From Haplodiscus bocki (taxonomy: Eukaryota): a DNA stretch of 64,000 nucleotides. The stretch lies in contig OZ296654.1 in assembly GCA_965655095.1 (NCBI GenBank), positions 69,316,001 to 69,380,000 on the forward strand, given 5' to 3'. The notes beneath the pieces were generated by a model, which ran no database searches, was not told the DNA's origin, and saw nothing but the letters and a program-made list of their open reading frames with translations. Shown here in pieces: positions 1,458 to 64,000 of the stretch. The translations under genes and the position numbers were made by a program. How positions within the stretch are numbered: the first letter of the stretch is position 1; every line of letters starts with the position of its first letter.

Positions 1458-2874
1458 GTTTGTCGCAGAGGCTTAATGGGGGGATGCTATTTTACTACGA
1501 TCATGCGGAAAATCGAACTAATGCTTAAATTTAATTCTTTTTCTAGTTCTAATTTTCTCTATCGCTTAGTGCTGCAAGTGATTAGCGTTCCTTTTGTTGT
1601 CTAGATGAATACAGCGGTGGCGCCGCGGCGGTTGTTTTGTTTAATGAAAATAAGTCTCAGGGGCATTTTTTGGTTTACTCTCAGGTGGCTTGCAGGCCTC
1701 GCGAACAAAACTTGCGTAACTTCAAAACAAGGACTTTATGAGCGATGGAGCGAAAATAGAAAGTGGAATAATCAATTATTCAGTCAACCGGGGGAAGAAA
1801 TATAATCAAACGGGAAATGAAAGAACTGCGCTAATGGACAATGAATCACGCATTAGCAATAGTAGCAAAAGTGGGAACAGAGGAAATTTCAGTCCCCGTA
1901 TAAATCGTGTACAGCACTCGGTAGTAGAAAATTTTATATAGTTGAAAATTATTACAAATCATTCCCTTTGGAAATTTTATAGTTAAATCCAATTCTTGTA
2001 AATATTCCTCATCAAATTGCAAAATTTATCAACTCAGCAGAAGCTTCAAAAACGTATTATTATGAAATAACCAAACAGATGTTGATCTGAACAGATTGGA
2101 TAATGTTAAAAATTATTAGGTTTACAAATTCTCGATATAAGTAAATCCATCCAAAATTTCAATAACATATAAATTCAGTTAATAAAAATGTAAGGTATCC
2201 TTTATAAAACTCCCAATAATTGTATTTGGGATAATTTTTAGGAGGTAAGAGAATACTTTTCAAGGTTTTTTTTGTTTTGGTTGGGCCAGGAAAGAGAGTC
2301 GGGTTCTCTTATTTTTCAGGCTCTATTTTTTCAAGGGTCGGGCTTGAGTTTTTTGTTATCAGTTAAGGTTATGTCGTACATAAACTCTACTATTTTTTGT
2401 CTACACTCAGTACTGGCGTCAGCGCAGCAACCGGTTGTATTCTTATCTTCCCCGATTGTCCAAACCGTGAATAAGTCACCGGAATTTGTTGGCGGGGTTT
2501 GATTTGGTTTAAATTTTGTCTATTACTCAGGAAAAGAGCTCGCTTTTTGGCGGCAACCTGGTGATGTTATCTTAGTCCCTCTTGTCCAACCGGGATTTTT
2601 ATCTAGCGGATTTTATGGAAGGGGTTTATGAGAGATTAGGATTGATCAGAGAGATATACTCACTCTGAACTAGGAAACTCTTTAACTAACGATTACCGTC
2701 GATGGGGCTGGATGATCTGCTGATAACTCAAGGACTCTCCTCTTTTTGGTCTGACTTGCGAAGAAATTGAGTAGGAAATATCAAATTAATGCAAAGAATG
2801 GATTTATGGAAATCAGGAATGGACGGTTTCTGCGTATTTAATCCATAACTCGGAGTTTAGAATAAATTCTAAAG

Positions 2875-3383
2875 ACTTTCTGTTAAGAGGTTGTGTCCAA
2901 TTCACTGGTAGTTTATTATTGAAACTTTTGTCTTTGTTAATCATAGCATTTAATTTCCATTCTAGAGGACGCATATTATGTTTAGTATAGAAATCATATG
3001 TCATATTCAATTTATTAGCTAATGTTATAATATGCATCTCTGCTATATGGTTGAAAGTATACCCCTCATCTTTAAAATTACTAATTTTTTTTCTAAGAAG
3101 TCATTGTTTTAATATCAGATAACTAAGACGTGATATATGGACAATATTGATAATCACTAAAAACTAGTTGAAATTCACATTTCACAAGATAATAATCGAA
3201 TTTTTCATTGTGTTCAATAATGTAGAAACAAAATGGTTCATCTACATTTTTGATGTCAATATCTTTGAGAGATAATATTATATGTTTACATTTATCGAAT
3301 TCTATGTGAGACTTTGATTTGAAATGTTTGTATTTGTTTTTAGCTTTGATAATTTTAAGACACATTTCACAATAGTAATCCAT
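2875..3383 (-). pseudogene. Polinton C2H2-type zinc-finger protein (frameshifted)
   Basis: YCEMCLKIIKAKNKYKHFKSKSH (C-x2-C-x12-H-x5-H); continues in ORF 2813-3037. Confidence 0.6.
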
Positions 3384-3570
3384 TTAACAAGAACATTTTT
3401 TTAAGTTATCGTTATACAAAATGAACATTAAAACTAATTTACTTGAACATTATGTCAACTTTGTCGATACAACAAAGAAACAAAATAAATACTTATGCGT
3501 ATGTACACTTATACTTGTATTTATAGTGATTACAATTCGTATTTGAGATGAAAAAATTATATAATATTAA

Positions 3571-4018
3571 ATGGATAACACTTTTCCTCTACAACAAATA
3601 TCTAAATCAGGTAATCTTGATTCTAATTTGACATCTCGTCAATATAAACTAAATCTTATGGCTGACATTATGCGGATGAAATATGGAAATCCAAAATTGA
3701 AGTAATCTGAAATAGCAAATCAATTAGGTCACTCTTCTTCTACTTTACAAAGATACAGAAACGATATAAACATGTTTTCACCCTTTAGAATTCAACCAAA
3801 TAACTTTGAAAAACGAAAAAAAGGGTTCAAATACTAATTTTGACAACAATTCACAGGGTGAACATGACCTCAAAAGACCTCGTTTGACATCAAATGACCT
3901 CAAAAGAACCTCAAACGAATCAGTTAAAAAAAAGAGAAACAAAATAAGAGGTGGCGGTGCTGGTAAAGTTCAGATTAACGGAAAAGATCTTATTGAACGA
4001 GTAATTTCGTTTAATTAA
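3571..4018 (+). pseudogene. Helix-turn-helix DNA-binding protein
   Basis: Manual translation from ATG 3571: ...NPKLK*SEIANQLGHSSSTLQRYRNDINM, a typical HTH pattern, followed by a basic tail after a frameshift. Confidence 0.65.
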
Positions 4019-4019
4019 T

Positions 4020-4389
4020 TGGCTGATTTTATAGAAATGATAAAAAAGATACTAATATCTAAAATGATACTTCACAAATCATTGATAAGTACAACTAAGA
4101 ATCATTTTCAACGAGATCTCAAATAGGTCAAAACGCTTTAATTCAAAGTAAAGTTTTTAAACAAGCTATAAACAATATGGGTGAAACAATATCAAAAACG
4201 GACATAGAGTTAGAACAAAAAGATAACAAAATACAATTTTTAGAGGATAAAATTTTAATACCAGATTCTAAAGTTAAAGAGGACATGAGTAGTTTAGATT
4301 TAAACAGAATATCAAACAGAGAAAAAAATGAGAGGTTTATGAATAGATTAAATAAAACACTTAATAATCATAGATATATTAAAAGTTAA
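4020..4389 (+). pseudogene. Small coiled-coil Polinton protein, unknown function
   Basis: Heptad-like ISKTDIELEQKDNKIQFLEDKI; 5' part disrupted. Confidence 0.4.
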
Positions 4390-4519
4390 AAGTAATAAAA
4401 TTATTACTTTTAAATAAAAGATTTGTTTTGATAATGACTTGTTTAGTGGAAAGACTTAATAATAATTATCTATTTGTTTAATTAGTTTTGTATACAACCC
4501 CATTTATGCTTGTTAAATA

Positions 4520-4964
4520 ATGGCTTTTAGTTCTTATTACAAACTTTCGGAGAGTGAATTTGATAACATCGTTTCGAAAATAGATAAATTACAAAATTCA
4601 AATATCACTCAATTAAAACTCGAAGTACACGATACATATAAAAAAGATGAAAAGGAAGAACAAACTTTGAACCTATTAATAACGAAGACGTATAAACAAA
4701 GCTTACTTAGACGATAAGCTATCAAAAATAAATCGTCAGTTATCAAAATTGGAAAAAGATTACAACGAAGTTAAATTACAATACAACAAACAATCTGTAG
4801 AAGAGGTCTTAGTTCAAAGAGTTGGAAAAACGACGCTACAAATACATTATGATAAGGCTTCATTTGATAATTATGCCAAACCTGATAAAGTTTTAGAAGA
4901 TTTTTTATTTACAACAAGAGGTAGAGATGACTTATCAGAGCAAGTAAATGATGTCGTTCAATGA
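4520..4964 (+). pseudogene. Uncharacterised Polinton protein (frameshifted)
   Basis: Two consecutive ORF fragments (4520-4717, 4749-4964) directly upstream of the protease. Confidence 0.4.
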
Positions 4965-5406
4965 TTTTATCAAAAAATATAATTTGAAAAATAAAGCAAC
5001 ATCCAATATAAAAATTCAACAAGTCCTTTCATTTTTGTCTTTGAATGATGTAGGAATCTATTTAAGAGATGAACCGTTTTCGAGTGATATAAGAATTGTA
5101 TTATTACATACTTCAAAAGGTACTCATTGGGTTTGTTATATAGGTGAAAATTATTTCGATAGTTACGGTTGTGCTCCTCCTCCCAAACTAACTAAATTTA
5201 TTATAAAACGAAATGGATATTGTCTTTATTCTGAATACAAGATACAAGGTCTGACAAGTAAAAAAGATAGTTCCTGTGCATCTTATTGTTTATATGCAAG
5301 TTACTTGACAGAAGTTATAGGAATGAATTTTAAATCAATTGTTTTTAATTTGAATTATCAAAGAATTTCTCAAACAAATTATTCGTACAACTTTAAGAAT
5401 AATTGA
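4948..5406 (+). CDS. Adenain-like (clan CE) cysteine maturation protease
   Basis: Catalytic motifs GTHWVCY, YFDSYG and Q...SSCASYCLY in an uninterrupted 152-aa ORF. Confidence 0.9.
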   Translation: MMSFNDFIKKYNLKNKATSNIKIQQVLSFLSLNDVGIYLRDEPFSSDIRIVLLHTSKGTHWVCYIGENYFDSYGCAPPPKLTKFIIKRNGYCLYSEYKIQGLTSKKDSSCASYCLYASYLTEVIGMNFKSIVFNLNYQRISQTNYSYNFKNN

Positions 5407-5569
5407 ATTATTATTCATATTCGAATAGGTGTTATTATATTTTTTATTTTAATTTATTGAATAATTTAATATGAATCAAAAACAAGTTAAAGTATTCATA
5501 CAAGTAAAATAATAATTATTATGTTATTAATCGTATTTCAATAAGTGTGATTACGCAATTACAAATATT

Positions 5570-5779
5570 ATGAGTGACGTTGCTAACTACTGAACTATAT
5601 CGAAAATAACTAATGATAATAGCGTAAAATATATTCCAAAAGGTGAAAAAACAAGAGAAATTAAACAAAACACGATGAAGAATGAATCAACTCCTAGAAA
5701 ACAAATGAAATATATTTCACAGAACAATGAACAATTCGCTAAGAATGTGGCAGCAGAAGGGTTTGGTTTCCTTATTTGA
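5570..5779 (+). pseudogene. Small basic putative core protein ending in a GxG motif
   Basis: ...FAKNVAAEGFGFLI*, one internal stop. GxG resembles adenain cleavage sites (inference). Confidence 0.3.
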
Positions 5780-6845
5780 ATAATGAATTGTTCTTTTTAA
5801 TAAAAAACATACTGATACCTTGATTGAGCAAACAAAAACAAAACCAAAAGAGACCCTTGAATTTAAAATCAACAAGCAAATGGAAACGTTTTCAGTTAAT
5901 CCTCCGATAAACCTTTCTGAGGAAGATAAATGATTACTAGGAGTGACTTTGTTTGAGTGTACAATTTCTGTTTTTAATGTAATTGTTGAAAACAATAGCT
6001 TTTCGATTACTACACCAGGTCATTGAACTTCTGAATCTGCCGAAAAAACTTTTGACGAACTAAATAAATTAATAGAGCTTAGATCTGAAAACGATAATAA
6101 GTTAAATGTTGAACAGTTTGAAAAAAAGGAATAAATTTAAAAAAAACTGTTCTTTATCCAGTCTTGGTACTTTCAAAAATGAAAAACTTGAAGATTTAAA
6201 AAAATCAAAATACATTGATTTTGGAGATATGGTATATAGATTCCAACTAACATATGATGGAAATATAAAAACATTAGACCTAAAAATTATTCCAACAACA
6301 ACTATGGGGTATATTCTACCACTTGGTAAGTATGAAATCATTGATAATAATTTTAAGTTAAAGTTTTTACTTCCGAAAGAAGTAAAAGTAAATATTACGA
6401 TTGATGATATTAGACTAAAATCAAATTTAACTACAAATAATTTAATTAGGTTTATTAAAAATCTTTCTTCTATATAATTCTCCGTTTTACTCAATCTCAA
6501 TCAGGTGAATTAGGTGATATCCCAGGTTTTATTCAATCAATTCCAGATCTTACAAAAGCGATAACCCAATCAACATTACAGGGATTGATGAACTTCATTT
6601 GAAATGTGATTGTTTACGAGGAAGTACAGTCAGCGGTACCCATGAATCTTTTTTATACTCTTTTGCTCTCGATCAACAACCAGGGCAAAAAATTCACAAA
6701 GAACCTAAATTCAAAATTTTTAAAATGAATAGTAAATCTGTTCTGTCTCATAGAATATATCATTCAGAAGATAACGATCACAAAGCAGTTGATTTTAACA
6801 GAGAAGTGATCAGTTTGACTTGTCAACTAGTTAAAATTTCATATT
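5776..6845 (+). pseudogene. Minor capsid protein (penton), paralogue 1
   Basis: N-terminal ETFSVNPPINL...LLGVTLFEC; C-terminal HLKCDCLRGSTVSG...LYSFALDQQPGQKIHKEP...DHKAVDFNREVISLTCQL, the Polinton penton pattern. Several frameshifts. Confidence 0.75.
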
Positions 6846-7036
6846 CGTATTTATATACATACCATTATACGAGTTATCATACTAGAGGTATACATACAAT
6901 TGTATTTGTATTTATATGAGAGACATATCTAGAAATACATTTGTATTATTACTACAAATATATGAGTGTTTATACAAGGGTATACATACAGCTATATGAA
7001 TATTTACAAGTATACGCAAATTAACTGAACTTAAAT

Positions 7037-8120
7037 ATGATTGGACCCAAAAATCAAACAGAAGATTAATTACTTTCAATAACTAAAAACTGTGAAACGC
7101 TTATTGAACAAACTCATGGAAAAGCAGAAGAGGTATTGGAATTTTCAAAGACAAAACCAAGAGAAACATTTCGTTTAAATCCACCAGTTGCAGTTAAAGA
7201 AGGTTGGATGATTGGATTAACGAGTCTACAAGTTTACAATACTACTTTTATTATAACAGAAAGAATAACAAATTCGAACTTTATAACTGTACTGTTGAAA
7301 AAAGTGGTGGTGTTTCATATGAAAAAGTCAAAGATGTGATTGAAAGAGATTTGGATGTTTCAGGTATTACAGCTACCGATTTACAAGATGAAAGAATAGC
7401 TTCGAATATTAATAAAATATAGAGAAAAAGTTACAAAAAGCATGAAAGATGATCAATCTATGCTTATTTTATCACTTTATGTTAGTTCTATATTTCAGGA
7501 ATTTTGAAAGTTTTCTAAGAACAGAAGTTGATTTGGTTGAAAACGATATTAGATTGGTTTTAGATGATTATAATTCAAGTTTTTTTTACCTATGACTCAG
7601 AACCAGGTCTTTTTACTTTCAAAGATCTTTCCAAAGCTCTTTTTAACATTCTTCAACCAGAATTTGAACTATATGACAACTCAGTTGATATTGAATTCGA
7701 TGATATTACCATGAAAACTAAATTAGTTATAAGACCGGGTATTTTAGCTGTAAGATTTGATGAAGAATCGTTTTTCAGTAGTATCCTTGGTTTTACTTCA
7801 GGTTGGGATTATAAACACTATAACGAATACACTAGTAAGAAAATTAAAAACTTGAGTATCACAAAAAAATACATTGGAAATGTGACGTTATAGATGGTAG
7901 TGTAGTTAATGGTTTAAGACAGCCTATACTTTTCAGTTTTGTTTTAGATAAACCGAGTATATAAAAACTGTTTTGCGAACCTGAAACAATACACTACAAA
8001 AAAAACAAAAACGAATCTGTTTTGATTACATTAAGATTTTATTTTGAAAATGATAAAAACGAAGAAGTTAATTTTAATCAAGAAGTTTCAACTTTGACAT
8101 TACAAATGATTAAAATTTGA
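7037..8120 (+). pseudogene. Minor capsid protein (penton), paralogue 2
   Basis: ETFRLNPPVAVKEGWMIGLTSLQVYN ... KCDVIDGSVVNGLRQPILFSFVLDKP...EPETIHYKK...NEEVNFNQEVSTLTLQMIKI, colinear with paralogue 1. Confidence 0.8.
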
Positions 8121-8302
8121 ACTAACCTGTTTACATACAATTTTTGAGTGTTTCTAATTGTGTTTACATACATTTATATGAGTATTTATATATGTTTATT
8201 TTTACACGAGTGATAATAAATCTGTATACATACAATTATATGAGTTTTTGTTTCTGTGTATACCTATTTTTATACAAGTAATAATACTTATTTGTGTAAT
8301 AA

Positions 8303-8720
8303 ATGAGCTTTCAAAAATTTAAAACTAATAGATATTGCGTTGGTCAGAAACACTACTCTTCTACAAAAAACATGGTGAAATAACATTTTTTAAAATCCGG
8401 TAGAGATATTAAATTATTAGTTGCAGAAGATTCGATTTGTACTAGAAAAAAATCAAGGATAGTCAGTGATAATACTATACAAGCAGAGGGGCCATGTAGT
8501 TTTTTCAAGAACTTGGGAAGGGTTTCTGCTAAAGCCTGTAAAAAATTAGCAACAAATTTATTAAAAAATCCAGGTAGAGTTCTCGAAACTGCTTCGAAAA
8601 TTGCTGCTGCAGCCGCAACTAGAAGCCCACCCAAAAGCAGCTTTGTCATCATTACCTGAGGTGATAAATTTTTACCACACAGGAAAACGGCTTTACTTAG
8701 GCAAATTTGTACAAATTATA
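8303..8720 (+). pseudogene. Zn-ribbon plus amphipathic-helix protein (adenovirus pVI-like candidate)
   Basis: YCVGQKH...SICTRKKS then AEG|PCSFFKNLGRVSAKACKKLATNLLKNPGRVLE; frameshifted. Confidence 0.5.
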
Positions 8721-8728
8721 CTATATAA

Positions 8729-9258
8729 ATGGAGCAAAACAACAGATAGCTTATATCCCTCAGCACCACTTGAAAATAAAGATTTAGAAAAAAGACTAGG
8801 AAAAAACTTAAAGGATGTTAACAGCTTTAATAACCACATCAACAACATTAAAAAATGATTACATATTTCAAAGATAAAAACAACAAATCCAAAAAATATA
8901 GAAAAATTGTAAAACTCTAAACACAATATTACAATCAGTAAACAGTATCGTTATTAGTGCGGCAACATCAACTTCTATGATTCTATCGATTACTGGTTTA
9001 GGTTTGATTGTTTTACCAATGTCAACTGGTATTGCATGTAGTCTATCAATAGGTAAGAAAAAATTACACAAGATAATCATAAACAAACACAATAAATACA
9101 AAAAACAATATGAAAAGGTTCGACAAACAATCAAATCTTTCGATAAATTATATAGAAAATTTTTACAAGATAATGTAATCGATAAAATTGACTATTGAAG
9201 TCTATGTAATATTTTAACTAAAAATTTGGATGAAATGAAAAATGAATCTTTTTTTTAA
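8729..9258 (+). pseudogene. Membrane protein with coiled coil, hydrophobic hairpin and LYPSAP motif
   Basis: LYPSAPLENKDLEKRL... then SIVISAATSTSMILSITGLGLIVLPMSTGIACSLSIG, then a basic helix and QDNVID. Confidence 0.6.
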
Positions 9259-9333
9259 AATATGAACATAAAAACAAAATTAACTTTTTTTAGTAATAAT
9301 AAATTAAACTTTCAACCTAGAGGTTAAAAAATT

Positions 9334-9562
9334 TGTTCTGTTCAATGTGAACTGTTCTGCTTAATGTGAATTCTTCTGTTCTCTTCAAATGAACTGTTCT
9401 GTTCAGGAGAACTGTTGTGTTCAAGTGGACTGTTCTGTTCAAGTGAACTGTTCTGTTCAAGTGAATTGTTCTGTTCAAGTGAACTGTTCTGTTCAAGTGA
9501 ACTGTTCTGTTCAAGTGAACTGTTCTGTTCAAGTGAACTGTTCTGTTCAAGTGAACTGTTCT
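9334..9562. repeat. 18-bp tandem array (GTTCAAGTGAACTGTTCT), ~12 units
   Basis: Directly visible. Right-hand units are near-identical and left-hand units degenerate. Confidence 0.97.
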
Positions 9563-9614
9563 AATCAATATTACTGCGAATTATTCTGTTCTGGAGGTAA
9601 AACTTACATATTAA

Positions 9615-10394
9615 ATGAATCAAATTTGTAATACGTGTAACCTAGAAATAGGTGAAAATAATTACAGGAAGGATAGAACTGTTTGTAAAAGTTGTTACTA
9701 GGAAAAGGAAAGAAAAAACAACAATAACACCTTAAACCAAAATCAACAACAAAACATCGATAAAATCAACAATAACAACGACAACAACCCTAATGTTTCA
9801 ACATATGAAAATCAAGCCTATATTGTTATTGGCCCAAGAAGTGTTGGTAAAGCTTACTACATGCTCAAAATGCCAAAAAAAATAAATTACAAAAGACTTA
9901 TTCATATAATAACTCGATTTCCCAATTAATGTCCAAATTATAAAACAACCACTGACATTAGATCAATAGACAAATACAAAGGTTCAATTGTTTTTTTCGA
10001 CGATATGTTAGGAGCTCGAAACAGTTCTCGAATAGATGAAATGTTTGCGAGAGGATGACATGAAAATTTAGATGTCTTTTACACTAGTCAGAGTTATTTT
10101 AGTTTACCGAAACAAAGCATTAGAAATAACAGTGATAGATTAATTCTGTTCAAACAAACATTAAGAGAAGTTCAAAGTATGTATGATGATATCGGAGCTT
10201 ATGATATGTTCAATTCAGAAATTAAAGAAATGTGTCATAAAGCTTGGAGTGAAAGAATTTACTATCTCTGCATTGATATGACTAAAAATAAAAATGAAGG
10301 TAATTATCGTATTTTCAATGAAAGCAAAAACACATATATTGAATGTATTTGCGAAACTGAAGCGTCCCAGTTTTTTAAAGGCTGTTTGCAGTAA
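9615..10394 (+). pseudogene. A32/FtsK-HerA family DNA-packaging ATPase with N-terminal CxxC...CxxC
   Basis: One frame from ATG 9615 with three stops: Walker A IGPRSVGKA, Walker B IVFFDDMLG, RG*H, and SQSYFSLPKQSIRNN. Confidence 0.92.
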
Positions 10395-11196
10395 AAATAT
10401 AGAAGATTTGAAAAATTTAGAAGACCTAGCTGTATTGAAAAACCAAGTCGAAGAAGTACTATTAAAAAATAGGCTAGGTAAACAGAATTTTCATGAGGAT
10501 ATGAAAAAAATCTTTGAACCAGTTACCAAATCACTTGTAAATACCTCTCAAGATATAACTATTGTAGAAAGGTCTAATAATAACAACAAAGCATTAGAGA
10601 ATTTAAACAACAAACTTCTAGAAATATTGAATGATAGAGGTATATTAGCAAGTTATTTGATATCCCCTTTATCTAAAATCACTAATCCTGAAAATAATAC
10701 TCAATTCAGATTGGTAAAAGATTCTAGCTCAAAGAGAGTCTTTGATTTGTTAATACAAAACTCAATACCATTTACTTTACGAGACAATTTGTTAGCCTTT
10801 CGTGATACAGGTAAAAAATTCGAATTAAAATGAGATCTCTTGAAAATGATAAATAAAAAAAACTATAACGTTGATCTTGCTAGTTTGCAGGATAAGAAAC
10901 TAAAGTGTGATTTTGCAAAACAAATGAGTTTTGATTTAAAAGCTCAAGGTAGTAAATCTACTCGAGATCGAACGTTTATAAAATTACTTAAATCACCTGC
11001 TACCATGGCTTCTGGGTTTTCAACAATATTTTTATCTTCTGATCTTGATCAACTTTGTAATAGATTAAAATTATTATTACAAGAAAAACAAGCTAGAAAT
11101 AATACTGATATCATTATTGAGGAAAAAATAGTTGTTATAGTTGATAAATTGTTAGAATACAAATGTTTATCTAAAAAAAGCATAAACAAATTATGA
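10380..11196 (+). pseudogene. Conserved Polinton coiled-coil structural protein
   Basis: KIFEPVTKSL and C-terminal LSSDLDQLCNRLKLLLQEKQARNN, resembling the D(P)NEL..RL.LL....GN motif of Polinton proteins; lies between ATPase and capsid. Confidence 0.6.
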
Positions 11197-11270
11197 TTAA
11201 AGGTAATCTATTATATAAATGATATATTTATTATCACAATTGTATGTATACATAATTTTTTACATTTTAA

Positions 11271-12525
11271 ATGTTCAAACTAAGTGAAAAAAATGAGATA
11301 AATAGAAACATTTTCAAAGGTGGTTGTATACGATATAGTCCACGCGAAAATAGTACAATATATACTGCAAATTCTCAGATATATATTAATATACCCAGAG
11401 AAGATAGTGTTTTTTAGTTTGGTAAAAATTTATCTTGAATTGAATTTTGATGTATTACGCGCTGCTACTAATAACAGATACGCAGATGGTAATGATATAG
11501 GGTTAGTTAACCTAGGGCCAATAGCTTTAATTAGTATTTATAAATTAGCAACAAGTCAGGCAAACACATTGAAGAGGTAAACGACGCTCATATTGTGAGT
11601 TTATTGTATGAATTATTACTAGTGCTAGAGGCTGTGATGATTTGTCTATTGGCTTTTATCGTGATCGTAATAGAAGACAACTTGAGTTGACTAATAACAA
11701 AACTATCAAAGGAAAATATCACCTCCGGATTATGTTGAAGGATATATTTGGCTTTGCCGAACATCAAGAAAAAGGCACATTTGGAGTCGGTTACAAATTA
11801 ACATTGACAACAAATACTGACAACGCTGTTTTGAATAAAGGTGGCGCAATCAACAATGGTAAAATTAAAATTAATGCTTTAGAATGGTATGTACCTCATT
11901 ATACACCGAGCATTACACAACAAAATATACTAAAGAATCAGATTTTAAAAAAGATGGCTACAGAACTACAATATCCAGAAAGATCTGTATTCATGAAGGA
12001 ACTCAATACTCAAATTTTTTGGACATTTGCATTGGAGCACAAGAAGGTATTAACATTCCTATATGGATATTTACAGTTTTCCGACAAAGTGATAGAGAAC
12101 ACGATGGAAATTTAAACAACGATACTTTTTGTAGGTTACCTGTAACACCCGCTCAAGTAATTATCGGAACAGTAAAGTATCCCGACTCTGGTATTTTATT
12201 AAAGTATGATGGTGATGATTATAGTCATGGTTATGGTCAAATTAAAGAAGCTTTAAAAGCTCTTACAATTGATAACTTTCTTTTACCATATAAATCTGAA
12301 AATGATTTTAGATCGTCTAATGATGATAATGATATTGGTTCTAATGTACACAGTTTCGATATACGATATCAGAAAAATTTTGAAAGTGCTCAACCTGTGA
12401 AAGTAGTATTTAATTATTCAGAAAATATTCCTGCTGCAGTATATGTTTACGCTTTAGTTTTAACGAATAGATTAGTAAGCATAAGTTTAGACGGTCAACG
12501 AATGTTAGACCTATCTTTGGTTTGA
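11271..12525 (+). pseudogene. Double jelly-roll major capsid protein
   Basis: About 415 codons across frameshifts: YLELNFDV, LKDIFGFAE, LEWYVPHYTPS, IPIWIFTVF, IGTVKYP, VHSFDIRYQ, VYALVLTNR. Confidence 0.88.
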
Positions 12526-13357
12526 CTTTTTCATAACACTATTATTTTCTTTCATTGTTAACTCTGTCTTTTTCAACAAGGCTTCGATTTATCTTTCTGG
12601 TAAATTGTCGATTTTATAACATGGTAATGTATCATTATTTCTGTAGTCTTATACAATTTATAAGACCAATTAGGTGTATCTCCTTTTGAGAACGTTTTCT
12701 TTAAATCACCTGTTCTAACGAGACCGTTCACTTGAAACTTTAGTTTTATTCTTTTTTTCTTTTCTAATAAATTATTGTAAACATAACCTTCATTCTTTTT
12801 TAAACTAGCTGGAATCGGTTTCAACTTAGTCGATGAATGTACTCGATTATTATATTGTTTCGTTCTTGGGGTTAATACATCAACCCAATTACCGTAACCC
12901 TTTTCAAGAACTGGTCGTTTAAGAAGATTTCTTATGCTTCTATTAAAGCGTTCTGCAAAAACAGCTCCAACAGAAGTTTTTCTAGAATCGAGTTTAATGT
13001 TATTGTTATCTCAGAACTTTTGAAAAATATTATTTTAAAACTCCTTACCACGATCATTTTCGGTTAAATTTGTTTTTTTTTTGAACATATCAAAAATTTT
13101 TCGAAAGAGTCTTTTACTGTTATAGCATTTTTATATTTGAGAGGTACTGTCCAACCAAATTCATTGAAATTTTCTATGATAACTAAAACATATGTATAAC
13201 CTCTATTGTTTTCAGGACCGTAACCTCTTAGGTCTAAAATATCTAAACACCAAATCTTATCGGTATAGTAAACATCGGTTTCATTTGTGGGATATTGCTT
13301 TTCCGGTGGTATCGAATAGATTTCGTTTATAAAAATTTTAAGTGATTTCTGAGTCCT
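12518..13357 (-). pseudogene. RVE (retroviral-like) c-integrase
   Basis: WCLDILD...YVLVIIENFNEFGWTVPLK...NDRGKEF...AVFAERFNRSIR...YNNRVHSSTKLKP...FQVNGLVR...FSKGDTPNWS. The D,D,E triad is recognisable. Confidence 0.92.
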
Positions 13358-13989
13358 TTACTTCTGAGTATATACAATATTTTTTTTAATTCTCCAGTCT
13401 CAAGAAATATATTTGCACCACTAACAGAATTTTCCAGTCCTTCGTCGTTAAAATCATAATCAAAAAGATTATCGGGTACTGAACCCTGAGCATTACTAAT
13501 AATATTAACCCAAAATTTATTTCTGTTCTCGAGAGTATCAATTTCATCATGTTTACATTGATCTTGAAGACTGAAATTCTTATTATTTAAATCTTGTTTA
13601 AATTGAGCTATCATATCATTTCGATATCCACATCCCGATTGCTCGTCTTCATCTGCATCAGCAAACCACGGGCACATAGATATTTTTATTAGTACACATC
13701 CTAAAATATAAATATAAAAAATCATACACTTCTATACATTCATCGGTTACGAATATCATCTCCCAAAAAGCTTTATCGAGTTTCATACCCTCATCTCGGG
13801 TTAGTTTTTTTGTGGAAAACATGCTGGCCAATATCCGTTCACTCCTCTATGCAAAGGCCCAATAAAGATGTTTATTCCATTCTTCTTTAGTATTGAATCT
13901 ATCACAAATTTGACAATATATATCGCTAAAGACTTCCATTTAGTTATTAATACAAATCTATTCATTTTTTTGGTTTTTTTCTCATACAT
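13327..13989 (-). pseudogene. Zinc-finger-containing Polinton protein (frameshifted)
   Basis: An alternative frame gives YCQICDRFNTKEEWNKHLY, joined by frameshift to ORF 13327-13725. Confidence 0.5.
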
Positions 13990-13994
13990 ACATA

Positions 13995-14288
13995 TTAATC
14001 AAAACACAACACATTCAATTTTTCAGTTATTGTATTAATTTTAGTATATAGATCCTGCATGAGTTCAGCATGTGTGTTAATTGATTTTCTACTTTGTTCA
14101 AGTTTTTCTTTATTGTTTTCCCCATATAGTCTAGATTTTTCTAATATTTTTTCGCTTTTTCTGATAGTGTTTACACACCGTATACTAGCTCATTTTTTAC
14201 ACGCAGCATATAATCTATGATACTCATCGTACTCTCTTTGAAAACCGCAAACACGGCATAGTTTAATTATTTGGCTTTCTTTACTCAT
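13995..14288 (-). pseudogene. Small CxxC/basic/coiled-coil protein
   Basis: MSKESQIIKLCRVCGFQREYDEYHRLYAACKK...; TAAATG start. Confidence 0.4.
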
Positions 14289-14387
14289 TTATTTAAGCAT
14301 AAATTTATCGAATTCTTTCTTATATATTCATTTAAATAGTGTTTTTTAACACAAAATAATTTAATTCAACGAAATTGTATATCATAA

Positions 14388-17300
14388 ATGAGTTTATATA
14401 AACACAAAAAAGTAAAGAAACAATATATTGAATCAAACAAAGTAATTGAATATAAAATAAAGACTGTAAACTATAAAATAAAAAACACCGAAAAACAAAT
14501 CCTAACTAACAAAGTTTGCTAGAAGGAAAAAAATAAAAAACAGAAAACAGAATTGTTATGGATCAAAAAAAACCGTTCTTAATAACAATCTCGATGTTTT
14601 AAACGACTCTAAAACCGAGTTAGTCACCAGACTCGATAAGAACAACAAAGAATTAAACAACATTGACAAAAAAATTCGAGATTCTAGACGTTTCGGTAAA
14701 TAAAGTTTTTTGATTTTCATGTTATTCCGCAAGATAACAATGTTGAGTCTGATTTAAACAAATCTCTAGATCTAGCTGAAAACAATGTGTCTTTTTTTGA
14801 AAACGATTCTATTTTCGATGTTGCCAACAATGTTGTTAGAGATAAACACCCCCTCATATTATAAAGCACACTAAATAAACGACAGCGACTCCACTTCTGT
14901 TAACACTTTCTTTAAAGATGTAAACGCTCTAAACAACCGGATTGAGAAAATAAATGATAACTTTGATGAAACATTAAACATCACTTTTACAGGAGAATTG
15001 ATTAAATACACTATAACTTTCAACAAAACACAACGAAATGATTACGGAACCGGCTGCGATAGCTTTCAAAAGATCATCGAAGATCGAGGAGACCTGTGTT
15101 ACATACCTGAGGAAAACGAGTGTTTAAGAAATTGTTTGGAATATATATCCAAAAAAGACTTGTCTGAAGAATATCGTGATTTTATCAAAGAATCTCAAAG
15201 AAATAAAGACAAATACGTCAGCTAAAATACAACCCTTCTGTAAAAAATACAACATTAATCTAGGTGCTTATAATAAAGATCAACGGTCAATTCTATTTAA
15301 ATCGGTCAAAGAACGAAAAATATGTCTATATTTTCAGAAAAACCATTTTTGCCTGATTTGGAAAACGATAAATACAAGTCTCACAGATGCAGTCAAAGAA
15401 ATAGAAAACAATTTTGAATACAAACCCAACCACATTACTGATAACATTTTAAAACAAATTGTTGAAAATATATTCCCTATATATAATGAAAAAGATTGTT
15501 TGTTTGCGGTATTTTTTTGATCTTGAAATTGTTAATGTGCAGTATCAAGAATTTTGTGAAGCGTATGCGGCTGGTTGTTATCACCTAGATCATTTAAAAG
15601 AATATTATAACGGTGATTTGACAGAAAAAAAACAAGATGTCGAGAAACAGTATGTTCATTTATTCGGTCGCGCTAACAACAATCCCCTTTTAGATATGAT
15701 TGAATATATTATCACAAATCATAGAGGTAAACCACAATATTTGAAAGATAAAAACGGTGAGTTCAAAATATCACCTTATAGATGTCAACAATTCGGTCAC
15801 AAATCTAGTGGTTTTGAGAACGCTATTGTTCTGAATTCACTACCGAAGAAATATACAAACAAAAACATGAAAATCATGAAAACATCTCGAAGATTCTTAA
15901 AATTAAGCTTTAGAGTTGGTACTGTTTACGAAGATGGTTAAGAAATACCACAATACATGAAATTTGTCTGTTCAAAAGTACATATCCCAGGATCTTTACA
16001 GAAAATACAAAAAGAATACAACCTTCAACCACAACTAATTTATGGTGAAATCGATCAGAATCTAATAAATTTATCGAATTAGAAAGAACATGAAAAGTTA
16101 TAGAAACCATATCTCATAGACGATGTTTCAGGACTAGCAGCAGTTGTAGCAAAACACGGTAACAAAATTCAAAAAATAACAGGTGTTTCGTTTAAAAATT
16201 CGTTAACAGAATCTTCTCTAGCAAGGTCTACTTTAGGAAAATACATGAAACAATCGGGAGAATCGGTCTACATACCATACATGTTCCAGATTTCATTCAA
16301 GTAACCGTACACGGCGGTAAAGTTGTTGCCTTGAATCGTAAATTTTTATCAATCTCGTTCATTCAAATAGTTAACATTCTGAGAAGATACCTAGGTAAGG
16401 AACATGAAATATCAACTTTATCTGAAATATACTTCCATAAATCAGATAAATTTAAAAACACTACCCAAAAAAAATATGAAAACAAATTCGATGATTATGG
16501 GAAAATAAACAAACAATTCTGAAGACTATATCATGAATAAACTATCAAACCTACCAATTTCCAAAAAATTAAACAAAATCGATAAATCAGATCTTCTCGT
16601 GTCAAGCGATTATAAAAGTTTATATTATCTGCAATGGCTCACGATGACTCAACTTGGCCGGCGATAGAGACAGCAAAAGCAATAAATCCGGAAGATAGTG
16701 AAGTATATTGTGAATTGTTCAATAATGACCAGTAGGAAACCTTAAACAAAACAGGATTCATTAAAGTTAAATATTACAACCCTGAGAACTTGATTCCTCA
16801 ACATATCGCTGTTAAAAAAGATGTATACAACGAAACCAGACATAAATGTGAATGCGTTAACCGATTTAGAAATGGAGACATAACTCAACATCTAACCAGT
16901 GTCAATATCGAACAAGTTGTAAGAACCGGCGGTATTATTAAACATTTCTACGAGGGTTTTATCTGCGATAATCTCAATTTCAACCCTTTCAAAGAATTTT
17001 TTTAGATATGACAGCGAAATAAAAGAATACAAAAAACAGGGTAAAAACATCGTACAAGATTTGTGTAAAAAAACATCAAATGGAACATATGGTGGTTGTA
17101 TTAGATGTGATGTTCACGATGTTTTGAAATGTATATCAGAAAATTGGATGAAAACAAATTATGATGACAGAGTTAAAGAATATATAGCCTTTAAAACCGA
17201 AAGTTTTTTAGTAAACATAAAAGATCATGATGGTGTGGACGATAATGGTGTGAGTAAAAAGGTAAATTCCCAGCCATATCAATTTGGATCTCTCATTTTA

Positions 17301-17984
17301 TCACTTTCGAAAAGGTTAAAGAATGAAGTTATATTGGCGTTAGACGGTTTCAAAAACGATAATTTTACTACGGAGACACGGATAGTTAATATATACACAA
17401 AAACGACAATGATATTCTCAAAATTAAGGGATTAGTTGGTAAAAAACTTATTCAATCAAAAAACGATTATGGCAACGGCGCCGGATTTTTTTATGGTTTG
17501 TTTTCAGCCCCCAAAGTCAAATATTGTATTGCTATCGCTGAAAATGGTGTATTAGCTCAAAAAACAACTTTGAAGGATTTAGCCAAAAATTAATAACGTA
17601 ACTTTTGGAGACTTTCTTGATCTGGAACAAGGTGAAACACTTGAAAATGTATAAAAACTGAAATGGAAACGTGAACTTGCAGGTATTAAGAGACCACGGC
17701 GTAAAGTTGGTTGTGAAAATTGTGATGAAAGTAAAAACTGTGTTGATTGTGTAATAAAACCAGAAAAGAATTGTTTGACTTGTGAAATAAGCAAAAATTG
17801 TCAAAATTGTTTAGTTAAAATAACTCGTGTAGCGGAAAATTCAGTAGAAATCATTAAATTAAAACGACAACGTGAAAACGAATTTGGTTATATGTTCCCA
17901 TATTATGAAACAAAAGACAATGTTATTATAGAAAATCCCGTTCAAAAAGAAATCAAAAGTGTAGTAATTGTGAAACAGAAATAA
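14388..17984 (+). pseudogene. polB: Protein-primed family B DNA polymerase with putative terminal-protein/vOTU N-terminus and Cys-rich C-terminus
   Basis: ExoI FFDLE (~15515), ExoII GHKSSGFE, ExoIII YLIDDV (~16110), HGG, motif A SDYKSLY (~16605), motif B KKTSNGTYGG (~17070), motif C YYGDTDS (~17365), APKVKY. Many frameshifts; exact start uncertain. Confidence 0.93.
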
Positions 17985-18539
17985 ACCCTCATAACTATAT
18001 TAAAAACAAAACTATTTGTAGAGCTTGTCTTAAAAAGAATATGAGAAACCGACGTAAAAAGTATTTGTTGAAGTATAATTACACCTATTCAGATACGGAT
18101 GCTAATATAATTATCCTAATACTTGTACCAATGCTTTTTGTATAAATATACTTTTATGACAACACCCCCACTGTCTTGAATTACCTAATCTTTTATGATT
18201 TTTTTGTAGGATAATTCATAAATAAATTTCTAACAAATATTTTTATTCGGCCGGAATGAGTTATTTCATAATATTTACCTTCAACTAACAAACCGGAACA
18301 ATATCAACATCTTAATTTTATCTTTGCATCATCTCTACAAATTGGACACACACCCATTTATGATGATAAAAATAAATTTTTCCTATAACTGTACAAATGT
18401 TCAATTTAGTTTATGCTAGTTTTTATTTGAAGTCAATCGGATACGTATTCATGGAGAAATCCTTAAAAAACTATGTGCTAGTCATCATGTTAGTACACAT
18501 ATTTCAAAGAAATCGTGTTTTTGTTTAGGACAAAAAAGT

Positions 18540-18937
18540 ATCCACTGACCAACTTTCGTGTCTAGCTTTTCAACTGTCTAGCGAGTGAGCATTCCTGGTG
18601 GATATCCCCATTGATCAATTCTACTCTTTCAAGCTTCAAGACATGGACAGTTCCTCCATATAGCTTTGTGCGTGATGTGACATAGACAGTTGCACGTTGG
18701 CTAGGCGTGAACCGCAAACACGACGACTATACAATTAAGCACAGCCTTATCTTTAGTGAATGTTACAAATACCACTAGGCTATACGGAGACAGAATAGAA
18801 AGAGAGATAGAGACAGACTAGATAGATTAGAAAGACAGAAATAGAAATAGAATAAAAATACATAATCTGTTATGTCGACATAATTTTTTCTGTCTCGTGT
18901 ATCATGTCGACATAATTGGTAATGGTGAATTTTTACT
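18540..18937. repeat. Putative right terminal repeat region of the Polinton
   Basis: Non-coding, with a purine-rich AGA(C/T)AG tract and two GTCGAC-centred palindromes (18870-18883, 18904-18913); ends ...TTTTACT. No partner TIR in the window. Confidence 0.5.
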
Positions 18938-19661
18938 TTTTTGGTTGCCTGTCTTGCGCGTTACTGACCGCGTTACCGTGGTTGCGTTTTATCAGCACAC
19001 GTGTTTATTATTAACGAAGGAAAGAGAACGATTCACTTAGCCATTAAGCGACCTAACAATCCATTAGCTGTTTAATTGGCGTGGAGAACATTTCATCACA
19101 TTCAAGGTTGCTCATTCATTTTCTCCTATTTTGTTTTTTTGTTTCCACATTTTCAGCAAATCGACTACCCCAAAACCCAAAAGCGACGCCTGTATCAATG
19201 GACAAGAACACGAACGAAGAAATGCCAAATGATCTTTTTTTTGTTGATTTTTGAACACTCTATGAAACCTGAATCATCAAAAGGACTTTTATCGATGTGG
19301 AAAAGCCATCAAAAAGAACCGAGAATAACAATAATTGAGACTGATTAGCTGTCCGAGGTGGCTAACTGAGAATACGATTAGCCGTTCACTATCGTATACC
19401 GAACACGGATACGAATTGCATTCGTCAACCGAACAAGGATGACGTTACCGACTGACACCGAGTGAAACTCCATTCTACGGAAGCATGATTCTAAGAACTT
19501 TTTTAATACATAACGAATTTGTAAATTAACCGGTGTCTAGAACTTATAACTTTTTATGTACTGTTCAGTATCATTATTAGAACTAATTGCAACAAAGTTG
19601 GTTGTCACTCAATAAAAGATAGTATCAAAAATCTAACCGTTTCGTATAATTCGTTGCGACT
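18938..19661 (+). mobile_element. Possible LTR fragment
   Basis: AATAAA near 19611 followed about 45 bp later by ...TTGCGAC, similar to the TGCGACA termini of other LTRs in this window. Confidence 0.3.
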
Positions 19662-57783: not shown

Positions 57784-59146
57784 ACTGCTGAGGGAAAATT
57801 CTTGTCAGTGGTGAAGACTGAATATAATTTTATTTTTGATTATCAGTAATGATCTCCTCTTAGTATGAGGGAAATTCTCAATGAATACAAACAGTCAAAT
57901 GACTTGAAAAGAATGGTACAATACCGAAAGGCTACAATATATATATAATATTTACTGTACTTTTATTTCTCCTATTTATACCTTTCCTTCGCGGGAAACA
58001 TAATTGTTTACACGCCGAATCAAGGTACAAATAGGGAAAAGTACTTTAATCATATTGTTTATCAAAGGAAAAGATGCCGACTCTGGTGGGAAATAAACAC
58101 CCTTCCGTCCATTTCTTCCCTCACGGACCGCGTCTTTTCCATCTTTCGACGGAAAAGGTGCGGGTCCGATCCGTCGGAAAAGGACGTCAAAGTGGTTGTT
58201 CCCGCGCCGACACAATAAATAAAAAAACATAAACAAAAGATCAAAGAGATTTCCATACAGGGAAAAAATCCTAGAATAAAATAGAAAAATAATTTAAAGT
58301 ATGGAAAAAAGAAGTTTATAATACTAAAAACGTTCATGTTTACATGTTACATTAATTAAAAACACTGTTGGGAATAAACTAGGCTTATTTCCTAGCCCAT
58401 TCCACGTTTCTACCAGCTCTGGCCTCACTTTGGCCGGAGCGTTCCGTGGCGACTACGTAGCCGCTTGTAGCACTGCCTCCCGCAGTGTTTCTGAGGAGAA
58501 TGAGTCTGGTGGCCACGCAGACATTCCATGTCCGTCCAAAGTGAAACAGCGTAGTAGCATAGCGGCCTGGCTGAAATTCTAGTGACGTCACCAGATTAGT
58601 TACGACGGAACACATACGGAACAAACATTCACCTTTAAAGTCAAGCTCTGTTCTAATAGTTAAGCTATTGAAAACTTGTTAAAACTGTCAGTCTAAAAAA
58701 ATTACTGCACAGATTAAAAGGTGGATTTATATAATAAATATTTAGATTAATTATATAAAATAGCACCTGATATTAATATAAAAATACAGTGAATATTCGT
58801 TTGCTACGTATCTATTCCGTCCCAATAAGGATCAGTTCACCAGAATTACACGTATCGGATACGTGTTTCTACAAGAAATAAAAATTATGGGACGATACGT
58901 AACTACTACGTATCGTCTACATTAAATACCTGTGAATACTAGGTGGATACGTATCTACTACGTATCCCAAATACAAATTAATGAGTACATGATGCGTTGG
59001 GTTTTTAAATGGACAAAATTATAAGTTTAATAGTTCGTAAGTGAGCTTGAAATGTCTTTAAAGTTTCTAATTCTTGTTTGATGGACCTGGGATGTCCTTT
59101 GTTGAGGGGATGGTCCGACCGCAGGCTTCGCAGACGCGCTGCGACA
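57378..59146 (-). mobile_element. 3' LTR (1769 bp) of a second element of the same family; internal region extends rightwards
   Basis: Same termini as the solo LTR, and immediately preceded on the minus strand by a polypurine tract. Confidence 0.92.
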
Positions 59147-59792
59147 CTCCCCCTTTCTTTGCAAAGGACATTGCCAGGCTCAATTTCCTCTTGAGCTTTC
59201 GTGGCGGCGGCGGCGGTGTGGTAGGAGTTGATGGCAAAAAAATATATTTTCCGGGGTTCATCATCGGAGTTAAAGGTATTATCTGACGAGATATCCCAGT
59301 AGCTCGTCGAGGTTCGTCACTGGTATAAAATGTGTTGTCGTCAGTTGTTGTGTGCGACGTCTCCCAACTGTCAACGGTGCTGACGTTCATTGGGGGCGTC
59401 GATATCGACGACAGTTCGTAAGGCCCCGGTGACTGCGGGCTGTAATCGTCGTTATCATCCTGTGTATGAGTTATCACCACCATGGTTGCCAAGATGTTGA
59501 ATGGATTGGGCGGCAGGTTCAGGTCATTTAAGCTCGGTGGAGCAATCGGAAGCTGCCGTCCAAATCCTTATGGCATCGTGGGCTCATTTGAGTCGTCATT
59601 AATAGTAAGTATCTCGGGTTCGGGGGATGCAATTGAAGACACTGAAGGCATCCATGCCGTGTGGGTTTGGGATATCTCAGTTGAGTTGAGGATATTCGGA
59701 TAATTATTCCGTCGAGGACTAGGCTCGTTGGATATTTGCTCCACATAGAAGACATCGGAATCACTCGAAGCAAGGGAGATATTGGATGACAT
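59067..59792 (-). pseudogene. Ser/Thr/Pro-rich accessory ORF (~241 aa, one premature stop) reading through the PPT into the 3' LTR
   Basis: ORFs 59568-59792 and 59067-59492 share a frame. It ends PPPPPRKLKRK...KKGGVSQRVCEACG...GPSNKN*. The solo LTR retains the homologous tail SQHTCEACGQIIPAAKDTPGPSTRN*. Confidence 0.7.
59147..59160 (-). promoter_or_regulatory. Polypurine tract AAAGAAAGGGGGAG
   Basis: Abuts the TGTCGCAG start of the 3' LTR. Confidence 0.9.
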
Positions 59793-60182
59793 GTTGATTT
59801 TAGAAGAATGATTTAAATTAATTCATGATGATGCAACTGGTTTCAAAAAATGAAAATGGAAAAGTGATCAGTATTGCGGGTAATGCTACTTCACTGTTAT
59901 TAAGCGGAAGTTGCTTTGATGTTCCCTCGCCGCTGCTCAGCATCACTGAAGGTAGGAAGTGAGAAGTGCAGTTCAAGTTAATGAGATGTAAAGAAGTCTC
60001 AAAATTGGAGTCTCTAATTTTGAGGAACTTTTGAGTATCGTTCCTCAATGTGTCCTTGGAAATGCATGCTGCCGTCATTGCTGGCAGACAAATTAATCAG
60101 GTTTTAAATGAAATAATCAAGAATTTTATGAATTAACGTGTAAATCCACCATGTAATAGCTCATTAGCCACGTCATTCATTA

Positions 60183-63100: not shown

Positions 63101-64000
63101 GTCCATGCTCAGTCCGCTGCCGATTACTACACTTTTGGTGAAGTCGCCCCTTTCGTTTTTTATCTTCTTCAGAAGATTAAGCAGAGCCGCGTCTTGCCAA
63201 TAGTTGAGCAGTGGGAGGAGTACATGGCTCCTAATCACTCAAAGTTTGCTGCCATTGAAGAAGATCGTTTCCTTGCTGGTACCCGTGTGCTGTCAGCTCT
63301 TGAAAAGGTGGGAAGTTCCTACCCAAAGAAAGAGTTCAGACGAGATTGCAGTAAGTTCCTAGAGGACTTCGTTAACTGTGTACTGTCGACTGTTGCCGCA
63401 AAGTCTGCAATAGGCCAAGGGTTAAGTTGTTTTTGCCCTCCTATTCTGGTTGGTGGACACGATCATGCCCCTATACAACTCTTTGACATGTTCCTTTATG
63501 ATCTGCTGGGTGAAAGTTGTGTGATGGGCGCAGAAATGGAAGGCTGCAAGTCAGAGTACCAGTCAGTCGTGCAAGAGCACAGGCAGCTGGAGCGGACTTC
63601 GAATAGGAGCCGCCCTGAGGTAAGGAACGTCCTGACTTTTTACTCTTCACAGGCTGGCTTCCGTGTGCGGCGTCATCTGTATAAAGTATGTATTTTCTCC
63701 AAAATGCGGTTTCAATCTTGCTGCAACTTCTAGCTTCTTCATGTTTTGTTTCAGGTCTTTCAATTAACAGCACTTGCCATACGTGGGTCAGTAACATCTG
63801 GAGAGAGGTTTACTGTGAATTTGGATCGAGTGGCTATCAGGGAGGAAGTAGTGCGCGGCGTGCTGCTGTGTGTTCAGGATTTTGTGAGAGATGCTGTTTT
63901 CACGCAGCGCAGCTTCTTTTCAGAGACGGATGTGGCAATGCTATCTGAGGCTGCTGCTATTTCTGACAGCATCACTAGCAGTTCCCTTTATGCCCCCGTG
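60183..64000 (+). pseudogene. Multi-exon gene resembling a diverged hAT transposase (BED-like finger, eroded RNase H core, hATC-like C-terminus); 3' end off window
   Basis: GT-AG introns at 60592-60725, 61141-61216, 61341-61411, 62065-62131, 62891-63086 and 63686-63754. Peptides: KRTFKMKKVW, GICRKDASVMTHGVHEILRHYQGTK, CVLEF...IWVFIRCW, VVSVQGG, HLYK/VFQLTALAIRGSVTSGERF. Confidence 0.65.

Follow-up and report, generated by a model that had tools for sequence, protein, structure and literature searches.

Gene Starts of a Polinton in the Analyzed Window

We analyzed a 64,000-nt stretch of the Haplodiscus bocki genome (contig OZ296654.1, positions 69,316,001 to 69,380,000; hereafter the window), which contains a decayed copy of a Polinton/Maverick element. 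A preliminary description of this DNA had drawn attention to TAAATG, a word resembling the late initiator of poxviruses, at ten start codons on both strands of the element, and all ten occurrences were confirmed. Below we describe these starts, a conserved T that accompanies them, and a poxvirus-type polymerase subunit gene in a sister lineage, which together suggest that the element may be transcribed by a viral helper.

Homology with other copies, referred to here as lineage A, begins near 2862-2883 and ends near 19012-19017, and the GC content inside the element falls to 25-33%. No terminal inverted repeat pair was seen in the decayed window copy. By its predicted proteins the element is a Polinton/Maverick, with Pfam matches in the copies to a protein-primed DNA polymerase B (pPolB), an rve integrase, a double-jelly-roll (DJR) capsid protein and an A32-like ATPase. 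The polymerase domain (DNA_pol_B_2) was found in copies whose homology to the window covers 14902-16516, the rve domain reached an E-value of 4e-12 in a copy and was weak in the window, and the capsid and ATPase families (PF21738 and PF04665) were matched in copies, with pieces remaining in the window.

Most reading frames of the window copy are broken, and the true gene starts can therefore not be read from it alone. Copies of the element are numerous in the 1.5-Gb host genome, which also holds intron-containing tubulin, Ras and HSP70 genes and histone arrays: a search with the 152-aa open reading frame (ORF) at 4948 gave 150 scored matches among 15,627 candidates. Lineage-A copies share a mean nucleotide identity of 78%. 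Across 15 of their gene families, with up to 10 full-length copies each, synonymous divergence (dS) ranged from 0.36 to 1.12 and dN/dS from 0.15 to 0.48, indicating that the copies diverged under selection and not by decay alone. The element and its gene starts are as follows, with upstream positions counted from the ATG and fractions giving the family members that carry TAA at -3 to -1 unless stated otherwise.

About 2,860-19,015, no strand assigned: decayed Polinton/Maverick copy of lineage A, an approximate extent set by the edges of homology in other copies.
3381..3386, minus strand: TAAATG of a zinc-finger-like gene (MDYYC...), placed by N-terminal homology; 8/9.
3568..3573, plus strand: TAAATG with T at -13, helix-turn-helix (HTH) gene; HTH_24 matched in a copy; 25/26.
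4514..4522, plus strand: TAAATAATG, in which the initiator lies 3 nt ahead of the ATG at 4520; placed by homology; 26/27.
4945..4950, plus strand: TAAATG with T at -13, putative maturation protease gene (4948-5406); 29/30.
5775..8117, plus strand: two related genes, putative minor capsids, both start codons lost here; 26/27 and 27/27 in other copies.
8300..8305, plus strand: TAAATG of a gene of a 137-aa family, placed by homology; 20/20.
8726..8731, plus strand: TAAATG with T at -13, gene of a 177-aa family, frame broken just past the start; 20/22.
9612..9617, plus strand: TAAATG of the packaging ATPase gene, broken, to about 10394; 20/22.
11268..11273, plus strand: TAAATG with a T run at -15 to -12, DJR major capsid gene, broken, to 12525; 24/25.
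12520..13357, minus strand: rve integrase gene, broken, TAA kept and start codon lost; 22/23.
13937..13942, minus strand: TAAATG with T at -13, zinc-finger-like gene; TAAATG in 16/18 aligned close copies.
14286..14291, minus strand: TAAATG with T at -13, small cysteine-rich gene, divergent from the gene at 14388; placed by close-copy alignment.
14385..14390, plus strand: TAAATG with T at -13, probable start of the pPolB gene, broken, to about 18000.
18355..18360, minus strand: TAAATG with a T run at -15 to -12, small cysteine-rich ORF; aligned in 1/20 stretches, TAAATG kept.

The protease label of 4948-5406, which had no Pfam match, is putative and follows from its catalytic motifs, and the two minor capsid genes are putatively so named from their size and position. 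The ATPase assignment draws on a Pox_A32 match (E 2e-7) in a copy.

As gene starts, the ten sites of the preliminary description fared unequally. Eight are conserved by N-terminal homology (3383(-), 3571, 4948, 8303, 8729, 9615, 11271, and 14288(-)), and that at 14388 is conserved in close copies, of which 14/19 have the ATG and 12/19 the entire TAAATG; polymerase homology begins at 14902. At 14288(-) the corresponding counts are 13/19 and 8/19, with the T at -13 kept in 19/19. The tenth site, 18357(-), is weakly supported because it could be aligned in only one of 20 stretches. Two starts had been missed, namely the TAAATG at 13939(-) and TAAATAATG at 4520. Two TAAATG words away from gene starts served as controls: the one at 14331 is kept in 0/19 close copies, and the one at 14954, inside coding sequence, is kept in 10/19, with T at -13 in 1/19. 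Fifteen window starts could be placed by homology; nine have an intact TAAATG, one is displaced (4520), and five have lost the start codon (5591, 5775, 7025, 10378, and 13357(-)), three of these keeping the TAA. Nine intact words among 15 starts are not expected from the 4.8% of ATGs that carry the word (binomial p 5e-9).

TAAATG Is Enriched at Gene Starts and Not Elsewhere

The word itself is no commoner than chance. The whole window contains 62 occurrences vs. 75.06 expected, and positions 2800-18450 contain 24 (24/499 ATGs), where Markov models give 18.7-25.6. The signal is thus one of position at gene starts and not of overall enrichment, and the claim made in the preliminary description therefore hinges on the sites being true starts. 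We compiled a lineage-A start set from 60 stretches representing 30 of the 150 listed copies, in which 800 ORFs were clustered on shared N-termini with the upstream bases disregarded. Of 40 clusters, 21 were kept and one of them was split in two, giving 22 families, a selection made after the counts were known. TAA was present at -3 to -1 in 383/402 starts and was the majority state in 22/22 families, compared with 5.5% of all ATGs and 20/398 other ORFs.

Since the clusters had been picked with the counts in hand, we checked the 19 that were dropped. They comprise 109 ORFs, none with TAA; 11 clusters were flagged as internal starts, six were mostly overlapped by a longer ORF, one small cluster has no explanation, and one is a polymerase start, where TAAAT lies 14-15 nt ahead of the ATG in 10/10 copies with a T ten bases upstream of it. 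Including all dropped clusters, TAA still precedes 383/511 starts. An unfiltered test on all non-overlapping ORFs of at least 100 aa gave 330/492 in lineage A and 228/352 in a second lineage of the same genome (lineage B/C, described below), and 8/175 in 20 pPolB loci from IMG/VR. These 20 (GC content 0.22-0.42) remained from 25 loci that fit the pPolB pattern after removal of five without pPolB homology. The motif is therefore not general to such elements, and it marks 0/47 starts in five Polinton-like IMG/VR loci that encode both an integrase and an ATPase. In seven of the pPolB loci (L283, L286, L292, L295, L296, L304, and L305), TATATA-like runs often stand just ahead of the ATG, a start signature of another kind. 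Chance occurrence in AT-rich DNA would agree with the total word counts, which match expectation; it is refuted by the start counts, 95% vs. 5.5% of ATGs and a clear majority even with all dropped clusters, and by the rarity of the pattern in the AT-rich IMG/VR loci.

Comparison with host gene starts had been proposed as a further check, equal frequency there being taken to speak against a viral motif. We examined 54 host loci, of which 39 had an in-frame ATG and 15 had none; this control is small, covers three families, and includes a few doubtful assignments. TAA precedes the ATG in 2/39 of these starts, A occupies -3 in 19/39, and AAA occurs in 11/39, so that TAA is not equally common at host starts.

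The word could alternatively act in translation, either by insulating each ATG with a stop in its own frame or through stop-restart coupling on a polycistronic RNA. The TAA is indeed a stop in frame with the ATG at most starts, and the A at -2 and -1 resembles host contexts. Only 13/383 lineage-A TAAs, however, close an upstream frame of at least 50 codons. Lineage-A genes end in TAA (232), TGA (110), and TAG (36), whereas TGA precedes two and TAG none of the 402 starts, which upholds the earlier view that this is not mere stop-start coupling. A translational role is further weakened by the frequent occurrence of TAAA out of frame and leaves the upstream T described below unexplained; we regard it as very improbable. 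The TAA is retained at starts despite the synonymous-site divergence of the 15 families.

A T Ten Bases Upstream of TAAA Forms a Second Part of the Signal

When each lineage-A family counts once, T is most frequent at -13 from the ATG, i.e., at -10 from TAAA, where it reaches 0.73 vs. a background of 0.39. It is the majority base there in 17/22 families (Wilcoxon p 4e-4; equaled in 0/20,000 circular shifts). Positions -15 to -12 are T-rich and almost devoid of G. The major capsid family has T at -13 in 24/24 TAA starts, and seven of the ten window sites first described carry it. At TAAATG sites that are not starts, T occurs at -13 with a frequency of 0.29.

Vaccinia late promoters have been described as TAAAT, typically followed by a G so that it overlaps the start codon (PMC11980589; similarly PMC5294985), and the 10th base upstream as a conserved T surrounded by Ts that vary more (PMC11980589). 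As judged from sequence, the T at -10 together with TAAAT(G) has the same layout as this published promoter, and the likeness to a poxvirus late initiator, first seen in the word alone, is strengthened by a T at the vaccinia position. No further shared upstream 6-mer stood out. We also considered the poxvirus intermediate-promoter class, with an A-rich core 15-19 nt upstream and no T at -10; it was not supported, as only a few families look this way, and AAAT at -20 to -13 was no commoner than in a control window across all families (0.127 vs. 0.131, p 0.45). Contigs from two of the four listed runs, of unrecorded kind and uninformative about expression, cover all 30 bins of one copy (L023) and reveal no start sites. 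Within L023:1000-10000 their joints link sites just upstream of different gene starts (such as 2064-8586, 2065-4392, and 8572-2071), which suggests that gene cassettes are shuffled at promoter segments.

The same two-part signal might be a compact nuclear promoter that host RNA polymerase II recognizes, perhaps aided by a factor from the element itself, for example the HTH protein. The polymerase subunit gene of the sister lineage (see below) would then be unrelated cargo. The elements integrate in the nucleus, the HTH gene is conserved in lineage A, and titles cited in PMC5294985 report an action of the host factors TBP and YY1 on late promoters of vaccinia. However, a TATA-like reading of the T run at -13 would put the transcription start inside the ORF, given a TATA position of -25 to -30, and the motif is missing both from host starts (2/39) and from the five Polinton-like IMG/VR loci. 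Polyadenylation-type AATAAA past stops was no commoner on the sense strand than on the antisense strand (0.19 vs. 0.15). We consider a polymerase II promoter unlikely.

A Sister Lineage Shares the Signal and Carries a Poxvirus-Type Rpo18 Gene

A search with the capsid family revealed a second Polinton lineage in the same genome, lineage B/C, whose capsids are 23-27% identical to those of lineage A. Its start set was drawn from 40 stretches, with 23 of 33 clusters kept; TAAA is lacking in the ten dropped clusters, which we took to be internal or antisense, one of them an upstream in-frame ATG. Among 346 starts, 276 have TAAATG, 63 have TAAA 1-6 nt further upstream, and 7 have neither. As in the 10/10 copies of one lineage-A polymerase start, TAAA is thus often displaced from the ATG, which makes the signal independent of the reading frame. 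T peaks at -9 to -11 from TAAA in this lineage, -9 being as high as -10, and it is the majority base at -10 in 19/23 families, or in 36/45 when both lineages are taken together. When three positions were considered, T tended to follow the displaced TAAA (47 unique starts, 2.09 vs. 1.45 T, with the higher value in 10/14 groups). Two pPolB types occur among lineage-A copies (L038, L044, L068, and L246 vs. L066). One of them is common to lineage B, with 70% identity compared with about 26% for the capsids, and polymerase modules therefore appear to have been swapped between the lineages.

A Pfam scan covered 43 of 49 ORF-cluster representatives. One representative, from copy L241, matched the poxvirus polymerase subunit family Rpo18 (PF03293) with an E-value of 1.8e-17 and 64 bits vs. 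a cut-off of 25. The gene is present in at least 150 places in the genome (150 scored matches among 456 candidates), has a dN/dS of 0.22, and carries TAAA 0-5 nt ahead of the ATG in 29/30 ORFs. Most of these starts (L326-L355) have AAAT about 14-17 nt upstream of TAAA and no T run, a resemblance to intermediate-type promoters. When the family profile was compared with PDB, vaccinia Rpo18 was the sole significant match (E 1.5e-19). The predicted structure (pLDDT 83.6) had vaccinia Rpo18 (6rfl_G) as its best fold match (E 1e-10, TM 0.72), followed by weaker matches to African swine fever virus (ASFV; 8e-6) and yeast Rpb7 (2e-5), and the best match among viral models was salmon gill poxvirus Rpo18. 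By its PF03293 match and its modeled Rpb7-like fold, nearest to that of poxvirus Rpo18, we identify the predicted product as a poxvirus-type Rpo18. We would guess that it supplements or redirects the polymerase of a helper.

Rpo18 and an HTH protein aside, the 43 scanned representatives include no RNA polymerase or transcription-factor family; the preliminary description had seen no RNA polymerase gene in the element. Neither RNA polymerase catalytic subunits nor a capping enzyme were found among the ORFs scanned.

In protein searches the matches were unnamed near copies. Protein and alignment scans of viral contigs with capsid, polymerase, and Rpo18-like queries found no relatives outside the host, and three loci in viral contigs that fit a clade-specific pattern proved unrelated. 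Of ten loci from a metagenome scan, eight are uninformative. In L311, whose polymerase shows 85% identity, TAAATG stands at each of the two genes that follow the polymerase gene, and L316 shows TAAATATG. Three lineage-A families of no assigned function had no PDB profile match below E 0.03, and one of these matched only unnamed clusters in the Atlas.

Proposed Transcription by a Helper Virus

We propose, with a probability of about two in three, that the two-part signal serves as a promoter for the RNA polymerase of a poxvirus-like cytoplasmic virus that co-infects the cell, and not for that of the host. The earlier suggestion that the element borrows the transcription machinery of a large DNA virus gains support from the layout of the signal, from host starts that lack it, and from the sister-lineage Rpo18. 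That the promoters are served by a large cytoplasmic helper of one kind or another seems somewhat safer. A more specific proposal stands at even odds: the two deeply diverged lineages would be endogenous poxvirus virophages that depend on a poxvirus late transcription machinery, one of which has kept a captured subunit of the helper polymerase, and their many divergent insertions would record repeated infection by a chordopox-like virus.

By analogy with vaccinia, the helper polymerase would start transcription within AAA and slip on the template TTT. The resulting mRNAs would be nearly leaderless, begin with an untemplated 5′ poly(A) head, and translate well in infected cells. A poly(A) head made by slippage at the initiator is described for vaccinia and for yeast elements (PMC6211774), and a translational advantage of the poly(A) leader is reported in PMC5595341. 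If the elements behave like mavirus and the EMALEs, copies in the chromosomes would stay mostly silent up to the arrival of a helper; they would then be replicated by their own pPolB, packaged in their own capsid, and reinserted by their own integrase. EMALE04 is described as awaiting CroV as its helper (PMC10945749).

The helper might instead be another nucleocytovirus, or a cytoplasmic linear element with a similar TAAA initiator, and not a poxvirus. Yeast virus-like elements use TAAAN with a polymerase related to that of poxviruses (PMC6211774), and in the Atlas the Rpo18-like protein lies closest to unnamed Nucleocytoviricota clusters (0.92-0.93), with the poxvirus Rpo18 cluster at 0.87 and rank 27, so that the donor may be an unsampled relative. 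The genome also gave no match to a poxvirus marker, the control searches being equally silent. On the other hand, the T at -10 is a feature described for poxvirus late promoters, and hidden Markov model and fold searches against PDB rank poxvirus Rpo18 first, by at least four orders of magnitude in E-value over ASFV and cellular Rpb7. A helper outside the poxviruses is in our estimation improbable.

Several observations, the Atlas ranking included, weigh against transcription by a poxvirus-like helper. The search for nucleocytoplasmic large DNA virus sequences in the host that the preliminary description had proposed returned no marker matches in the assembly for VLTF3 (PF04947), the capsid (PF04451), or Pox_Rif (PF03340), a weak negative given that the controls were silent too, and only three Rpb1-type loci were present, as expected of cellular polymerases. 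Neither the window nor the 60 lineage-A stretches yielded an Rpo18-like gene. The copies are nuclear and the polymerase would be cytoplasmic, and the route between them is unexplained. Replication genes bear the same late-type signal. Gene interiors show no depletion of T-N9-TAAAT (ratios 1.09 and 0.94), and when a single position was tested, T did not clearly follow the displaced TAAA (24 vs. 21 of 45).

Animal Polintons may be nuclear viruses that live autonomously, or they may depend as satellites on large DNA viruses, and a promoter signature that names the helper family makes the choice between the two testable. Should transcription by a poxvirus-like helper hold, it would predict an undiscovered poxvirus-like virus in this animal, and TAAAT with T at -10 would offer a simple sequence screen for helper-dependent Polintons in other genomes.

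Other Features of the Window and Its Copies

Putative gag-like and other retroelement-like ORF fragments flank the Polinton at 1-1080 and 59000-64000. Within the element, a spacer repeat (GTATACATACAATT...) lies between genes at 6887-7017, 8130-8295, and 11222-11251, with one occurrence inverted, and an 18-nt unit is repeated in about 11 tandem copies between two element genes at 9341-9592. The pPolB gene of one copy (L024:3468-5867, plus strand) contains an intein that includes a homing endonuclease of the LAGLIDADG type (PF14890, E 4e-8; PF14528, E 2e-8), and that of another (L012:1130-3898) contains an endonuclease VII-like domain (PF02945, E 2e-5).

Comparison With Known Systems

The closest promoter parallel is with the late promoters of vaccinia and mpox, which are described as sharing TAAAT followed by the G of the start codon, the T at the 10th base upstream, a T-rich core, and AT-rich surroundings (PMC11980589; PMC5294985). 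Here, in contrast, the signal belongs to a Polinton that integrates and has no multisubunit RNA polymerase, and it precedes almost all genes, those for replication included. The yeast elements pGKL1/2 are likewise linear pPolB elements with a TAAAN initiator and 5′ poly(A) made by slippage; they differ in having their own two-subunit RNA polymerase and capping enzyme, none of which was found among the ORFs scanned here, and an early-type upstream sequence (PMC6211774).

Among Polintons/Mavericks, the "adintoviruses" have the same set of pPolB, rve integrase, DJR capsid, and A32-like ATPase, a length of about 16 kb, and many genomic copies, and the main text of their description contains neither "promoter" nor "helper" (PMC8502044). 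Other pPolB elements, as sampled by the 20 IMG/VR loci, do not have the TAAATG-start pattern. Trichomonas Polintons are reported to have acquired KilA from poxvirus relatives (10.1101/2024.03.23.586382). The Polinton-like viruses associated with entomopoxviruses (Barth et al., 2024) are proposed hyperparasites of poxviruses with which they share genes; they come from occlusion bodies of infected insects, and the main text includes no promoter analysis and does not use the words motif, TAAAT, transcription, upstream, or late gene (PMC11296320). The present evidence comes from endogenous copies, through the anatomy of their promoters and a polymerase subunit, and by fold the closest Rpo18 proteins are those of chordopoxviruses and a fish poxvirus, not of entomopoxviruses. 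In literature titles and the openings of abstracts, with subscription journals sparsely covered and supplements excluded, we found no description of TAAATG promoters or Rpo18 in animal Polintons.

Promoter sharing with a helper is established for protist virophages and for PgVV (PMC10945749; 10.1101/2022.07.28.501842). Both mavirus/EMALE04 with CroV in Cafeteria (PMC10945749) and PgVV Gezel-14T with PgV (10.1101/2022.07.28.501842) are integrated small dsDNA viruses with promoters like those of a large cytoplasmic virus. These systems have protist hosts and known, cultured helpers of the Imitervirales, whereas the elements described here have an animal host, a poxvirus-type motif, and no known helper. 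The start signal of lineage A and its sister lineage is real, strong, and specific, and their way of life is likely a variant of the virophage-like one.

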